Assembly: GCA_964523855.1 (NCBI GenBank)
Contig: CAZGAF010000001.1
Coordinates: 38,159 to 73,586, forward strand
Length of the DNA stretch: 35,428 bases
DNA from: an uncultured Candidatus Saccharibacteria bacterium
GTDB lineage: Bacteria; Patescibacteriota; Doudnabacteria; UBA920
Reading direction: 5' to 3'
The position numbers and the translations under genes were made by a program. Shown in pieces: positions 10,115 through 14,158 of this stretch (positions within the stretch are counted from its first letter, which is position 1; every line of letters begins with the position of its first letter). The notes beneath the pieces were generated by a model, which saw nothing but the letters and a program-made list of their open reading frames with translations, searched no databases and had not been told where the DNA came from.

Positions 10115-10556
10115 GTTTTAATGGTTTTAAATTTGAAGCTAGTCCCAAAGCTAAGGCTATAAGGACTAAGTTCTTTATCATATACTGCCCTTCCAAAGTC
10201 GGTACAAAAGGCGCCTGCCAAGCAATTTCGGGCAAAAAAACCAAAGGCATAAGTGTCATACCCATATGGATTACAAATAGCGGGATTACCAACCTGGTTG
10301 CTTTTGGAAATAAAAACAAAAAACCTATTAACATTTCATACAAAGCAAAGAGTAAAATAAAACTTTGAAAACTCAAGAAAGGCAAAGTTTTTTGCTGCAA
10401 ATCCATAACCAACGGGTTAGCTGGTGATAGGTTTAAAATTTTCAAGATTCCAAACCAAAAATACACCACAAACAAACTCACTCTGGCTAAAGGCGCAGAA
10501 ACTCGTCTGGAAAAGTTTATAAACTTTTCATCTGCTTCTAAAATTTTATGTCGCAT
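10107..10556 (-). CDS. integral membrane protein (DoxX/DUF417-like guess)
   Basis: 149-aa 4-TM ORF overlapping the maf start by 8 nt. Confidence 0.55.
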   Translation of the reverse strand: MRHKILEADEKFINFSRRVSAPLARVSLFVVYFWFGILKILNLSPANPLVMDLQQKTLPFLSFQSFILLFALYEMLIGFLFLFPKATRLVIPLFVIHMGMTLMPLVFLPEIAWQAPFVPTLEGQYMIKNLVLIALALGLASNLKPLKHA

Positions 10557-10610
10557 GTTAGGGCTTTTAATTTTAAAGAATTTTTGTTAAAATAAACAAA
10601 GTTTTAAATA

Positions 10611-10809
10611 CGGGCTGTAGTATAGTGGTAGTACGCGTCCACTTGCCCTGTTAAATTTTACCCTTGTGCGGGGTATAGTATAGTGGTAGTACGCGCCCAT
10701 GGGGTGGGTGTAGACTGGGTTCGATTCCCAGTACCCCGACCAAGGGTAGAAATATTTAACAGGGTAAAGGGTGAATGTAGTCTGGGTTTGATTCCCAACA
10801 GCCCAACCA
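10611..10809 (+). ncRNA. interrupted/split tRNA-shaped gene (tRNA-Pro paralog) hosting a whole tRNA in its anticodon loop
   Basis: 10611-10640 carries the acceptor 5' strand, a D arm identical to the inner tRNA, and CGTCC. 10769-10809 carries GGGTG, the T arm, the acceptor 3' strand and ACCA. 10645-10666 pairs with 10741-10765 (22 bp, two bulges). Deviations from a normal tRNA: C1.A72, C49.A65, T-loop TTTGATT and an 8-nt variable region. Confidence 0.5.
10669..10742 (+). tRNA. tRNA-Pro (anticodon GGG), CCA encoded
   Basis: Manual cloverleaf: CGGGGTA/TACCCCG acceptor, GTAT/GTAC D stem, CGCCC-AT GGG GT-GGGTG anticodon arm, CTGGG-TTCGATT-CCCAG T arm, discriminator A, CCA. Confidence 0.9.
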
Positions 10810-10923
10810 GCTTTCGCTAAATCTTTTAACTACTCTAGCCACGAGTAAAACAGAAGGTTTATCGAAAAATGTATAAATTGTTATAACGAAAGCTGTGTCC
10901 GACGAAGTTTTAACGAAGTCGGA

Positions 10924-10966
10924 CCAAAGAAAAAAGTATGACTTCATGTCGTGCTTTTTTCTTTGG
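10924..10966. repeat. perfect 13-bp inverted repeat (hairpin) downstream of the tRNA locus
   Basis: CCAAAGAAAAAAG, 17-nt loop, CTTTTTTCTTTGG. It is preceded by the GTCCGAC/GTCGGAC hairpin at 10897-10924. Confidence 0.6.
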
Positions 10967-11080
10967 TTATTGGCAGTAAAATACTATTATATTTGATTGT
11001 GTAGTTGCCTCATTCATGAGGCCAAAAAAGCATAAGCTCATTAAACAGTAGTAACTACTATAATTCTAGCAAAATTCAAT

Positions 11081-11114
11081 AAAAAAAGAAGGCTCGAAAA
11101 GTTTCGAGCCTTTT
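11081..11114. terminator. bidirectional intrinsic terminator after the 106-aa ORF
   Basis: GGCTCGA-aaagtt-TCGAGCC flanked by AAAAAAA and TTTT. Confidence 0.7.
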
Positions 11115-11128
11115 GGATTCTTTCGGAC

Positions 11129-11449
11129 TTATACGCCCCAGCCATAAGCGACATCATGAGAAGTTGGCGGTTTTTGTAGCGGTATCGACTCCAAACGATT
11201 GGCTATTCTAGGCCCATCGATAAGTGTATCTCCCGCTAAACCGTCTGGACGGCTGTTTAAAAAAACACAGCACAGCTGTCTTTCCTCGCTTACAACTACC
11301 GCCACATGAATCACGCGGTCATGAAGCCTACGAACTTCGTAGGATTCTACCGTCACCACAACCGCACTTCCCTCAAAGGACATTGCAACCTCGCTGCCCT
11401 TTTCAAAGGAAACGGAAACGTCCTTATTAACTCTCAATATACGCTGCAT
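11129..11449 (-). CDS. orphan hypothetical protein (106 aa)
   Basis: GGAGG 4 nt upstream of the ATG at 11449. G+C-rich relative to the housekeeping genes; has its own promoter and terminator. Confidence 0.5.
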   Translation of the reverse strand: MQRILRVNKDVSVSFEKGSEVAMSFEGSAVVVTVESYEVRRLHDRVIHVAVVVSEERQLCCVFLNSRPDGLAGDTLIDGPRIANRLESIPLQKPPTSHDVAYGWGV

Positions 11450-11520
11450 TGCTCCTCCAACCAAATTTTTACTGCCAAAAAATAGATTTTAATTTTTAAA
11501 AACTATTTTTTTGCAACAAA

Positions 11521-11550
11521 AAGAAAAACCCCCTTTGCAGGGGGTTTTAA
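11521..11550. terminator. intrinsic terminator located inside the leader of the 106-aa ORF
   Basis: AACCCCCT-ttgc-AGGGGGTT with T-runs in both directions. It lies between the promoter at 11631-11658 and the ATG at 11449. Confidence 0.7.
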
Positions 11551-11630
11551 ATTTAAATACTTTAAAACACCACCTGCTTAGGGGGTAATAATAATTATGC
11601 TGCTGTTCTGTATGCGTTTCATATATGTAT

Positions 11631-11658
11631 ATATTATCAAAAGAAAAAATTGTGTCAA
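11631..11658 (-). promoter_or_regulatory. sigma70-like promoter
   Basis: Minus strand reads TTGACA (11653-11658), 16 nt, TAATAT (11631-11636). Confidence 0.5.
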
Positions 11659-11683
11659 ATAAAAAAGCCGATAAAAGCGGCTT
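11659..11683 (-). terminator. intrinsic terminator after the 60-aa ORF
   Basis: Minus strand reads AAGCCG-cttttat-CGGCTT followed by TTTTTTAT. Confidence 0.6.
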
Positions 11684-11730
11684 AATATACAACTGCCAGA
11701 GAAACTGGCAAAAGCAGAAACTGATTGCGG

Positions 11731-11913
11731 CTAACAGGAAATTAAAGATTGGCGACTAGACGCTCTGAGACGCCGGTATAACTCTTCGAACAAATCTGAA
11801 CAACATTCGAAAACTTGATCGCGGCTTGGCTTAAACCAAGCTGGGTACCGCATCGTAATGCGCCACGAAATCTCATCTTGTATCTTCCTAATTTCCGGAT
11901 CCTCGCTCGTCAT
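11731..11913 (-). CDS. orphan micro-protein (60 aa)
   Basis: GGAGGA 3 nt upstream of the ATG at 11913 (MTSEDPEIRK...). Its own terminator is downstream. Confidence 0.45.
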   Translation of the reverse strand: MTSEDPEIRKIQDEISWRITMRYPAWFKPSRDQVFECCSDLFEELYRRLRASSRQSLISC

Positions 11914-12211
11914 CCGTCCTCCTCTACAAACTAACTTCAAACACCAAAAATGTGGTCAAAATATTTTTAACAAAACTTTTGGAATATGAATTTTTTGGGG
12001 AAGAGACAGCGCCGAATGTCTCTGTGTTAAGTGGTTTGGAAAAGATTAGCACACGTGCTAAGATCTTTTTCTGTACACAAACAACACTCGGCGCTGAAGA
12101 TCTGGCTCCAACAGTTTTCACCATGGAGCCTAAGCTACATTAGTTCTGAACGAAAGACCTATTTGGTCTTTAGCTGCCGATTACTCGGTCAGCTTTTCGC
12201 CCAGTTGGAGA

Positions 12212-12385
12212 TCAGGTCAAGCAATAATGTCTGAGCTCTTCACCAAGCTCGTGCTTGATCCGTCTCGGATTTTGGCCTGTCGACTCAAGCATTGCTCTTG
12301 TCAACTTTATGGCCTGAATACCAGACGGGTCTACCTGATCAACTTTTATTTCCTCAGTAACAAGGAGCGCGGGATCCTCATTCAT
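12212..12385 (-). CDS. orphan micro-protein (57 aa; not in the ORF track)
   Basis: Hand translation: MNEDPALLVTEEIKVDQVDPSGIQAIKLTRAMLESTGQNPRRIKHELGEELRHYCLT. GGAGG lies 9 nt upstream of the ATG at 12385. Confidence 0.45.
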   Translation of the reverse strand: MNEDPALLVTEEIKVDQVDPSGIQAIKLTRAMLESTGQNPRRIKHELGEELRHYCLT

Positions 12386-12855
12386 CGGAATATTCCTCCG
12401 GTTTGATTGCCCACCAACGGAGGCGGGCTGGAGATTACTAGGTAGTCAAACACCGGTTGATGCTTTTTTGGTCAACCTTGTTGTACAAGGTTAATTACAG
12501 ACTACCTAAATTTGGCGGTGGCTTAACAGGTTACTGCAGGCATATTATTGCAACTTAACACAGCGGGCCAAGGGCGCCCATTACCCTGTCGAAAGTTTTT
12601 GGCTTTGCTTCACCAAAGTGACCTTCCGCCACCATAACTTGTCGGGTGGTTTTCAAACCTGACTCATGTTCCTCTCTCTCCGTGCGCTAGGCCAAAGAAC
12701 ATTAAGTCAAATTCTATTGGAGCGTTTCCGCTCATTTAGCTTAATTAAGCCAAAGACCAAAATTTGGTCACATCCACCCATAACTTTTGCAGACTCTTTG
12801 CGTCTACAGGCATGTAAACTTTAAAACCAAACCTTACATACCTTTAAACGCATTT
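12386..12855 (-). ncRNA. candidate structured RNA / long structured 5' leader
   Basis: No credible ORF on either strand. Contains a 9-bp closing stem (12439-12447/12500-12508) around two hairpins, a GAGCG-GAAA-CGCTC GNRA hairpin (12720-12733 on the minus strand), and two stems that carry G.U on the minus strand but C.A on the plus strand. A CCUCCG segment pairs with the SD of the 57-aa ORF. Confidence 0.35.
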
Positions 12856-12996
12856 TAAAACCCCGCTTCTTGCGGGGTTGTGTTTAGGTGTAATTTTAGA
12901 CCGTGTTCACACCTCACCCCGCGCGCCCAAAAGGACGGCCTTCACAAAGACCGGGCGAATAGAAATGAGGTTGTGTATATTCTGTAACATCTTAAA
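12856..12996 (-). promoter_or_regulatory. candidate transcription attenuator (terminator/antiterminator) or ~140-nt sRNA
   Basis: On the minus strand, GCGGGGT (12916-12922) and GCGGGGTT (12859-12866) compete for the same AACCCCGC (12872-12879). The downstream pairing is followed by UUUU. Confidence 0.4.
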
Positions 12997-13002
12997 AACA
13001 AT

Positions 13003-13029
13003 ATTATACCTATCGCTTTCACCTGTCAA
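13003..13029 (-). promoter_or_regulatory. promoter with consensus hexamers but a short spacer
   Basis: Minus strand reads TTGACA (13024-13029), 15 nt, TATAAT (13003-13008). Confidence 0.4.
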
Positions 13030-13207
13030 GCGAGTTATCAACAAGGGAAATTAAATTGCTCTAATTTCTAATTAACCTAATTGACTTATAAAATGTCTAA
13101 TTTCTAAATTGAGGCTTGGAATTTGTTTAAAATAATTAGGGTAATTATAATAATTTACATACATGTACAACAAATTCGAATTCTCCTAACAAATCTTATT
13201 ATATTTT

Positions 13208-14158
13208 CTAAACGGTAAGATACCCTGAGTTCTGTTCTGCTGCTTTTTCTGCCATTTTATGGACTATATCGTTAAGTTCTTCTTCACTGTAGAATTCGAT
13301 TAAAATTTTACCAGCCTGACCTTGTCTTTGAATTTTAACCTGAGCTCCAAGCTTAATGCGCAGCTCAGACTCCATAGCCATAAGTTTAGGGTCAGGAGCG
13401 GCCGCATCCATGCTCTTTTTGGCTGTAAGTTCACGAACTTTATTTTCAACTTGCCTTACAGTCCAGTTATCCTCCATGGCTTTTTTGGCCATTAAAATAA
13501 TTTTTTCCGGATCCTGTAAACCCAAAAGTCCTCTGGCATGACCTTCGCTTAAGCGGCCTTCTATTACAAACCTTTGGACTTCTGCCGGCAAGTTTAACAA
13601 ACGAACCGTGTTAGCCACCGCAGGACGCGACTTGCCAACTTTTTTTGCCACCTGCTCCTGGGTCAGACTAAACATGGTCATAAGCTTACTGTAAGCCTGT
13701 GCTTCTTCTATTGGGTTCAGTTCCTGGCGCTGGATATTTTCTATAAGCGCAACTTCGAGCTTGGTCTGGTCAACCATCTCTTCTTTTATAATAGCTGGCA
13801 CCATTTTTAAACCTGCCAACTGGCTTGCGCGAAAACGTCTTTCCCCGACCACCAACTCATAGCCTGTTGGAGTTTTTATAACCACCAGAGGCTGAATAAC
13901 CCCATGTTCTCTTATGGAGTCAGAAAGTTCTTTTAAAGCATTTGGTTCAAAAACTTTTCTTGGCTGAAAAGGATTCGGAACTATTTTTTCTATTTCAATT
14001 TGGTCTATTCTGGCTCCCTCATAAGAAACTCTTTCTGAAGTCTGCGCCGGTACAATAGGCGCCGGAGGAGGCGGCACAACCGGTGCGGGCGAAATCCTTT
14101 CAAAACTGTCTAAAGGCTGTATGGTAACATTGGGTTCTGTTTGGCTTATGGGGTCCAT
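13208..14158 (-). CDS. parB: ParB/Spo0J-family partition protein
   Basis: 316 aa; VVGERRFRA and LIENIQRQELNPIEEAQAY boxes, an HTH region, and a Pro-rich N-terminal extension. Confidence 0.9.
   Translation of the reverse strand: MDPISQTEPNVTIQPLDSFERISPAPVVPPPPAPIVPAQTSERVSYEGARIDQIEIEKIVPNPFQPRKVFEPNALKELSDSIREHGVIQPLVVIKTPTGYELVVGERRFRASQLAGLKMVPAIIKEEMVDQTKLEVALIENIQRQELNPIEEAQAYSKLMTMFSLTQEQVAKKVGKSRPAVANTVRLLNLPAEVQRFVIEGRLSEGHARGLLGLQDPEKIILMAKKAMEDNWTVRQVENKVRELTAKKSMDAAAPDPKLMAMESELRIKLGAQVKIQRQGQAGKILIEFYSEEELNDIVHKMAEKAAEQNSGYLTV

Follow-up and report, generated by a model that had tools for sequence, protein, structure and literature searches.

Two putative leader-peptide attenuators ahead of fast-evolving micro-proteins between tRNA-Pro and parB in a candidate-phyla bacterium

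Results and discussion

The window, the whole 35,428-nucleotide (nt) stretch of DNA that we analyzed (C1:38159-73586 of its source genome, which is 1.03 Mb long and 97.8% complete), contains an islet of small open reading frames (ORFs) between parB (13208-14158) and a tRNA-Pro(GGG) gene (10669-10742, plus strand), which is the other border of the islet. The genes around it all lie on the minus strand, the islet being downstream of parB and upstream of a gene for a 149-amino-acid (aa) membrane protein. Our comparison of the islet with related genomes suggests, with a probability of about 0.6, that it holds two minus-strand units, each of which would be gated by a ribosome-mediated (leader-peptide) transcription attenuator placed ahead of fast-evolving micro-proteins. 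The parts of both attenuators are present and conserved and can form alternative pairings, and in a relative the family of one of the two leaders stands directly ahead of ridA-ilvA. In what follows, the leader next to parB is called leader A and the other leader B; G000 is the genome of the window, G001, G002 and G003 are relatives of the same genus, and other G numbers are further relatives. The comparison set comprised 146 related genomes of the order, 95 of which were the family genomes used for the search with the covariance model R1 described below.

An earlier, sequence-only reading of this DNA had described three minus-strand ORFs of 57 aa (12212-12385), 60 aa (11731-11913) and 106 aa (11129-11449), and we found all three in these places, with a GGAGG or GGAGGA box 5 to 9 nt ahead of each ATG as it had claimed; the 60-aa and 106-aa ORFs, both counted from an ATG, belong to longer frames of 69 aa (from a TTG) and 111 aa, respectively. 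Its three intrinsic terminators correspond to terminator-like hairpins at 11665-11683, 11525-11548 and 11089-11112. That reading had also recognized heavily regulated leaders in which a promoter is followed by a complete terminator before the ORF; this layout was described rightly and can now be explained as that of leader-peptide attenuators. The promoter at 13001-13029, the two mini-ORFs of 27 and 14 codons, the terminator at ~12857-12879 and the 112-nt hairpin at 11985-12096 were absent from it. A scan of positions 10500-13400 gave 13 terminator-like sites against 2.6 +/- 1.9 in shuffled sequence, and 14 promoter-like sites against 5.9 +/- 2.0.

Leader B and its link to isoleucine synthesis

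Leader B begins at promoter P_B (11631-11658, minus strand), which consists of TTGACA, a 16-nt spacer and TAATAT with an upstream TG, and which is the promoter already assigned to the 106-aa ORF; the same promoter is found in G003, G001, G002 and G017. Only 8 nt after the -10 box comes the ATG of a mini-ORF of 14 codons plus stop (11578-11622, minus strand), which has no Shine-Dalgarno (SD) box and whose peptide contains four consecutive isoleucine (Ile) codons followed by Thr-Pro-stop. The last codons of this mini-ORF are at the same time the 5' base strand of a long terminator hairpin with a U-run (11523-11586, minus strand; fold z-score -5.2), the inner part of which can form a short terminator (11525-11548), the one noted earlier. 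RNAalifold on leader B of the four genus members gave 20 pairs, 3 of them compensated. The covariance model R1, built from these four sequences, matched 6 of the 95 family genomes, namely the four of the genus plus G050 and G075, and a more distant version was located by alignment in G017. Homologues of leader B rich in Ile and Val and 14 to 29 codons long are thus at hand in G003, G001, G002, G017, G050 and G075; an Ile/Val run was seen in all seven instances, each with a promoter, a near-leaderless mini-ORF and a terminator.

The gene behind the leader differs from genome to genome. In G075, leader B lies directly upstream of genes for RidA (TIGR00004, 165.6 bits) and IlvA (NF006390, 640 bits, cut-off 421), the latter being threonine ammonia-lyase, the first enzyme of isoleucine synthesis. 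The features of the leader B family, taken together with this link to ridA-ilvA, argue that the family is one of Ile-type leader-peptide attenuators. IlvA was found in only two of the 146 genomes, G075 and G045, and in G045 the end of a short frame, a hairpin and a U-run stand ahead of ridA-ilvA, the contig end cutting the locus, so that control of these genes by a leader is probable there too. Elsewhere, the gene behind leader B encodes a protein of the 60-aa family (G001) or other orphans (G002, G050), and the cargo proteins were mutually unrelated when compared with hhalign. In G000, an A+U-rich hairpin (11466-11522, minus strand; inverted repeat I2, 85% complementary) separates the attenuator from the SD of the 106-aa ORF and is identical to G003 in 67 of 77 columns.

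The two ridA-ilvA loci (G075:C39 6027-7909 and G045:C37 1-1731), both behind a leader with a terminator, stand isolated in genomes that are otherwise reduced, the first step of isoleucine synthesis having been either left over or acquired there. A decayed copy of either gene was also looked for with tblastn, and no remnant was found in the islet or in the corresponding spacers of relatives (best E 0.11), nor in the genome.

Leader A

Leader A starts from promoter P_A (13001-13029, minus strand; TTGACA, 17 nt, TAATAT/TATAAT), which is conserved in G003 and G002 ahead of the homologous mini-ORF. The ATG of this mini-ORF (12907-12990, minus strand; 27 codons plus stop) stands 12 nt after the -10 box and, as in leader B, has no SD. 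Within the frame lies a hairpin (12936-12953, minus strand) with a 6-bp stem and a variable 4-nt loop, and codons 23-26 make up an antiterminator strand (12915-12923, minus strand) complementary to the 5' strand of the intrinsic terminator T_A (~12857-12879, minus strand). The same or a compensated hairpin is present behind the mini-ORF in all nine complete instances. In each of the nine, the antiterminator:terminator pairing beats at least 97% of 300 shuffles (0 to 9 of 300 reach the observed value), and the pairing of codons 23-26 with their own terminator holds over five different terminator sequences. RNAalifold independently recovered the antiterminator helix (12 pairs, 5 compensated) and, on the nine instances, also retained the internal hairpin (6 pairs, one varying UG/CG/UA), which could possibly serve as a pause hairpin for RNA polymerase.

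A search of the 146 genomes with profile A8 (10 sequences) found leader A as a single copy per genome in 16, all in the family of the window, and each match falls within an open frame of 28-79 aa. In all 10 loci that were read (the window, G003, G002 and 7 others, from several genera) leader A is located ~70-200 nt downstream of parB. The frame is kept, with a length of 27-32 codons, and M1, P13, F15 and K17 are invariant in the 10 aligned sequences; one instance has a codon insertion and retains the hairpin, shifted in register. Compared with G003, the mini-ORF has a proportion of synonymous differences (pS) of 0.20 and of nonsynonymous differences (pN) of 0.065. In contig X4, which is 94% identical and probably derived from DNA, the changes within the frame are one synonymous, one Glu-to-Lys and one stop-to-stop. 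A pattern scan of metagenomes for leader A returned 7 matches, all of which we judged to be chance. In other genera the cargo behind leader A differs and often consists of small zinc-ribbon-like proteins, of which nothing reached the Pfam cut-off; the cargo proteins of G011 and G065 are related to one another (E 5.5e-8).

Proposed mechanism

The features expected of a leader-peptide attenuator can be compared directly with the two units. A short ORF is present in both 5' leaders, its translation being putative, and leader B has a cluster of codons for the amino acid that would be sensed. An intrinsic terminator, that is, a hairpin with compensatory changes followed by a U-run, was found ahead of the structural gene in 16 of 16 instances (9 of leader A and 7 of leader B), in 15 of them by automatic detection and in one, G066, by eye. 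A mutually exclusive antiterminator was found in all nine instances of leader A and, with differing strength, in the seven of leader B; we infer its dependence on the ribosome, with stalling as the trigger and the charging of Ile or branched-chain tRNA as the signal in G000.

Unit B would run from P_B through the near-leaderless 14-codon ORF with its four Ile codons and the terminator to the 106-aa gene. With charged tRNA-Ile plentiful, the ribosome would reach the end of the mini-ORF, allowing either the long hairpin or the short terminator to form, and transcription would stop. A ribosome stalled on the Ile codons would instead cover the 5' base of the hairpin, so that the middle strands could pair together while the 3' strand next to the U-run stays unpaired and RNA polymerase reads through. 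Unit A would run from P_A through the 27-codon ORF with its hairpin, T_A and a leader of ~470 nt to the 57-aa ORF, the long hairpin, the 60-aa ORF and the terminator T_B. Here a ribosome at the stop codon would mask the antiterminator strand in the last codons and allow T_A to form; if it were stalled further upstream, this strand could pair with the 5' strand of T_A and RNA polymerase would read on.

One may go further and see in the whole interval a dedicated nutrient-sensing locus of an isoleucine-auxotrophic organism, in which two related stalling leaders, one sensing through its Ile codons and the other through its conserved combination of peptide and hairpin, report the host-derived supply of amino acids and switch on fast-evolving micro-proteins, and to which the neighboring tRNA-Pro(GGG) could belong as well; we regard this extension as quite unlikely. 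In 5 of the 7 instances of leader B, the Ile run is closed by a CCC or CCU Pro codon, and tRNA-Pro(GGG) reads both under standard wobble rules, from which a link of this tRNA to the leader circuit might be imagined.

Conservation and the cargo ORFs

Identities per segment were taken from a full pairwise alignment with G003. They are highest for leader B (94.3%, 99 of 105 columns), for the hairpin at 11985-12096 (93.8%, 105 of 112 columns) and for the leader A mini-ORF (89.3%, 75 of 84), and amount at the DNA level to 66% for the 106-aa ORF, 48% for the 57-aa ORF and 40% for the 60-aa ORF. The three ORFs are therefore not the best-kept parts of the islet, the leaders being far better conserved. 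Since the synonymous-site difference to G003 is 0.61-0.68 per site in parB, in the membrane protein gene and in the 106-aa gene, the high identity of the leaders indicates strong selection at the nucleotide level.

The 106-aa orphan gene (11129-11449, minus strand) is of equal length in G003, with 60% aa identity and a ratio of nonsynonymous to synonymous rates (dN/dS) of 0.16, which on sequence grounds marks it as a real gene under purifying selection. A word-based search of 5.8 billion proteins returned only the protein itself, and an exhaustive search of 1.84 billion representatives gave one weak relative, P0002 (E 6.5e-4). Its AlphaFold2 model is poor (predicted local distance difference test, pLDDT, 52.8), and its best neighbors in the protein atlas are viral hypothetical clusters whose score of 0.77 is non-significant and below lead level. 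It is followed by the bidirectional terminator hairpin T_C (11089-11112, minus strand), conserved in G003.

In the unit of leader A, T_A is separated from the 57-aa ORF by a structured 5' leader (12386-12856, minus strand; ~470 nt) without a credible ORF. It is 64-66% identical to G003, with a variable core at 12520-12640 (33%), its hairpins in 12640-12850 are maintained by compensatory changes, and it includes a hairpin able to sequester the SD of the 57-aa ORF (~12386-12425). The 57-aa ORF itself (12212-12385, minus strand) encodes an acidic, fast-evolving protein with 38% aa identity to G003 (pN 0.44, pS 0.78), its SD, ATG and stop position being kept there. The 60-aa ORF (11731-11913, minus strand) is predicted to encode a helical hairpin (AlphaFold2 model of two helices, pLDDT 82.7), and a fold search with this model was uninformative, the best hits (E 0.82) being designed helical bundles. 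A 67-aa protein of G001, encoded behind leader B in that genome, is its homologue (44% identity over 48 aa, E 1.2e-11). A profile of the 57-aa and 60-aa proteins gave E values of 1e-16 or better only in G000, G003 and G001 of the 146 genomes, and G094 followed at E 0.007. The sequence-only reading had recognized none of these products, and all cargo proteins are orphans: none of 10 small islet ORFs had a Pfam or PHROGs match below E 0.05, and NCBIfam gave no match for the islet proteins. As a reading frame, the 106-aa ORF is kept, the 57-aa ORF is fast evolving and the 60-aa ORF is lost in G003 beyond the N-terminus. The unit is closed by terminator T_B (11665-11683, minus strand), which ends transcription from leader A and is conserved in G003.

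Between the 57-aa and 60-aa ORFs lies the long, nearly invariant hairpin of ~36 bp (11985-12096, minus strand), overlapped by a doubtful 66-aa frame (11924-12124); it shows no covariation because there is hardly any variation. Inside this hairpin, 12045-12062 holds a near-palindrome of 16 nt whose centre is CACGTG-like; it occurs nowhere else in the genome and bears a loose likeness to the arrangement of parS half-sites. Three runs of a single study yielded RNA-library contigs identical to 12106-12256, 12210-12403 and 12441-12670, which hint weakly at expression of the read-through part.

Weighing the alternative explanations

The sequence-only reading had described the islet as G+C-richer than its surroundings and had raised, as speculation, the possibility of an element inserted at the tRNA gene, or of the remains of a phage, with a toxin-antitoxin, addiction or defence module as its cargo. 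The spacer from the tRNA to parB has a G+C content of 40.5%, in a genome of 39.6%, and its 500-nt bins (37.6-46.4%) do not leave the range seen elsewhere in the window (32.6-47.4%), so the claim of a compositional difference did not survive, and the G+C content equals that of the genome where a foreign insert would be expected to deviate. No integrase, recombinase or phage family was found in 10 ORFs scanned (Pfam, PHROGs), in agreement with the earlier statement that no integrase was seen. Copies of the tRNA halves are present next to the tRNA, contrary to that reading, which had found no direct repeat of the tRNA 3' end; these repeats, like the adjoining tRNA gene itself, would suit an integration target, but they are halves of a conserved nested fold (12 compensated pairs) rather than attachment sites, and the islet does not lie between them. 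G003 carries the islet in the same place, where it aligns in three DNA blocks with 72-77% identity and has diverged to about the same degree as its flanks; the leaders are shared with G001 and G002, the order parB, leader A, small ORFs and tRNA-Pro recurs in several genera of the family, and leader A stands just downstream of parB in every locus read. What fits the expectation of an inserted element is that the content of the spacer varies at the family level: at the DNA level, a family search found the islet in common only with G003 and, weakly, G002; cargo proteins differ among genomes while the leaders persist; and the spacer is nearly empty in G012 and G019. The small acidic orphan proteins and the viral, non-significant atlas neighbors of the 106-aa protein may be counted on the same side. 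The module proposed as cargo found no match over threshold in Pfam, PHROGs, NCBIfam or PADLOC (0 of 6 proteins in the last), none of the proteins belonging to a known toxin-antitoxin or defence family; because the proteins are orphans, this null result is an absence of evidence, and their orphan status leaves room for a new type. Altogether we consider the integrated element highly improbable and largely refuted, and the islet is best read, by sequence comparison, as a vertically inherited, fast-evolving chromosomal locus rather than a foreign insert.

Two other explanations were weighed. Both leaders could be free-standing genes, one for a 27-aa amphipathic peptide and one for a short hydrophobic Ile/Val peptide, or small RNAs, with the downstream ORFs using their own signals. 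Each unit is indeed a complete promoter-to-terminator cassette, leader A keeps its frame, its length and Pro13, Phe15 and Lys17 as a conserved peptide would, and the leaders stay in place as the cargo varies. The length of leader B, on the other hand, changes between 14 and 29 codons with only the Ile/Val run kept, and a membrane peptide of 14 residues would be short. Covariation links the terminator with the antiterminator, the latter always lying in the last codons, which would be needless for a plain small gene; in G075 the leader is directly ahead of ridA-ilvA with no other promoter noted, and between T_A and the 57-aa ORF only a weak promoter-like site (12544-12571) was listed. We hold free-standing genes to be unlikely. 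The second explanation is that the stretch is largely non-coding, made up of structured RNAs or decaying sequence, and that the 57-aa, 60-aa and 66-aa frames are not real proteins. It draws on the better conservation of blocks outside the frames than of the 57-aa and 60-aa ORFs, on the compensatory hairpins in 12640-12850 and the ~36-bp hairpin formed by the 112-nt block, on the pN of the 57-aa ORF and the loss of the 60-aa frame in G003, and on the spacers between tRNA-Pro and parB, which measure 1.5-2.4 kb in 7 genomes compared (G000 and 6 relatives) and have no long ORFs. It is opposed by the 57-aa ORF, which keeps its SD, ATG and stop in G003 though its DNA is only 48% identical, by the protein-level homologue of the 60-aa protein at a different place in the locus of G001, along with the well-scored model, and by the finding that no Rfam family matches; we judge it very unlikely.

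The reading as two attenuators also has to face observations that weigh against it. Leader A was found in just 16 of 146 genomes, and the distance from tRNA-Pro to the end of parB shrinks to ~50 nt in G012 and ~260 nt in G019. Leader A is rich in Ile, Leu and Val and has no run of one codon, and the stem of the RNA hairpin falls on the codons of its invariant Pro13, Phe15 and Lys17, which makes constraints on the peptide and on the RNA inseparable. In leader B, region 2 pairs strongly with region 3 in only 3 of the 7 instances, where 0 of 300 shuffles do as well, and weakly in the other 4 (13-33 of 300), and in G017 a distant terminator follows a mini-ORF of 29 codons whose hydrophobic product would fit a small membrane peptide too. 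Putative control of genes for making or charging the sensed amino acid was found in G075 (ridA-ilvA) and not in G000, in whose genome no ilvA or ridA is detectable; an Ile attenuator would here be without a biosynthetic target and would gate the 106-aa orphan. The 57-aa ORF is weakly constrained, pS being saturated, and the 60-aa ORF is kept in G003 only at its N-terminus. The RNA-library contigs, which come from a single study, could be carry-over DNA.

Comparison with known systems

Leader B is similar to the attenuators of ilvGMEDA (ilvL) and ilvBN in the Enterobacteria in that a short ORF has a run of Ile/Val codons ending near a Pro codon, in that an intrinsic terminator is combined with alternative pairings that would be set by ribosome position and, in G075, in that the operon controlled includes ilvA. 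It differs from them in being near-leaderless, without SD and with only 14 codons in G000, in folding by default into a single long hairpin (1:4 plus 2:3) where those attenuators have separate 1:2 and 3:4 hairpins, and in regulating a 106-aa orphan in G000, where no ilv genes are detectable. None of the leader families of Rfam scored above threshold, the best being Phe_leader with 32.8 bits against a gathering score of 55.

In the trp attenuator, a 1:2 pause hairpin, a 2:3 antiterminator and a 3:4 terminator alternate. Leader A likewise has a hairpin within the leader ORF and an antiterminator strand at the end of the ORF that pairs with the 5' strand of the terminator, but it has no single run of regulatory codons, and its peptide core and hairpin are conserved across genera; it is also single-copy and downstream of parB, with small orphan or zinc-ribbon proteins as cargo instead of biosynthetic enzymes. 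Its invariant residues and its terminator/antiterminator switch would also fit the sequence-specific stalling of leader peptides such as TnaC and the antibiotic-responsive ones ahead of ABC-F and efflux genes, although the downstream genes here are not for resistance or transport and the invariant residues may reflect the RNA hairpin. With tRNA-adjacent islands and prophage remnants the islet shares its position beside a tRNA gene, its orphan small ORFs and a content that varies among relatives; it differs from them in having no integrase, flanking attachment (att) repeats or compositional shift, and in having its leaders at the same place across genera.

Bacteria of the candidate phyla radiation (CPR) have tiny genomes and rely on hosts for their amino acids. 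Very little is known of their regulation, and in the parts of the literature reached by a full-text search no paper joined leader peptides and attenuation or terminators with CPR bacteria. If the attenuator reading is true, an Ile attenuator that has outlived the ilv genes and gates orphan micro-proteins would be a starvation sensor re-used after genome reduction, and it would give a concrete handle on what lineage-specific small proteins do. Leader A, as a compact family with clear covariation in 16 genomes, could become an RNA or leader family model for annotation.

Neighboring features

Several other candidates for the islet were considered and rejected. A replication origin or parS was not indicated, the GC skew showing no turn and no canonical parS being found within 3 mismatches genome-wide. 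For a known large RNA there was no Rfam match in the islet, and the RNase P RNA of G000 is located elsewhere, on C7, with 60.7 bits, below the Rfam gathering score of 100. A transfer-messenger RNA (tmRNA) was looked for with ARAGORN and RF00023, which in the whole genome matched only tRNAs, none scoring above 30 bits, and gave no match within the islet; SmpB was not searched for, and ARAGORN counts 42 tRNAs in this genome. Rfam 15 on the window matched only two tRNAs, no match at E up to 5 reaching two-thirds of its gathering score, and on the loci of six relatives it gave tRNAs only. Reassignment of TGA to Trp or of TAG to Gln opened no long gene or ORF in the islet.

The tRNA-half copies mentioned above lie at 10611-10641 (5' half) and 10769-10810 (3' half), the latter 27 nt past tRNA-Pro and not at the far end of the islet, and they pair with one another as the two halves of an outer tRNA-like cloverleaf, halves that span 10611-10645 and 10769-10810. 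The anticodon stem of this outer cloverleaf extends into a helix of ~30 bp that bears the complete tRNA-Pro(GGG) at its tip. The nested fold (10611-10810, plus strand) has a minimum free energy of -88.9 kcal/mol (z -5.1), and 0 of 200 shuffles fold as well. G001 and G004 show this layout too, the D and T loops of the outer fold bearing extra hairpins, and RNAalifold on the three sequences gave 68 pairs, 12 of them compensated; G003, G002 and G011 have the plain tRNA only. The layout may be a processing scaffold for the pre-tRNA. It looks new, a full-text search having returned no description of such a nested tRNA arrangement in the portion of the literature that it covered.

Downstream of tRNA-Pro, at 10923-10967, is a 20-bp A+T-rich palindromic hairpin that is 87-89% conserved in several other genera (G071, G092, G017, G005 and G074) and whose homologue in G017 directly abuts the tRNA; it may be a terminator or a processing hairpin of the tRNA. 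At the parB end, 13049-13155 is an A+T-rich intergenic repeat of ~100 nt, with further copies in G000 at C7:21467-21571 and C13:22140-22232 (84% and 77% identical), one of which lies between mraZ-like and rsmH-like genes, and with many matches in relatives. In its place, G003 and G002 have a gene for a 120-123-aa protein that, read by eye, would be of the four-helix-bundle ('23S rRNA intervening sequence') type.

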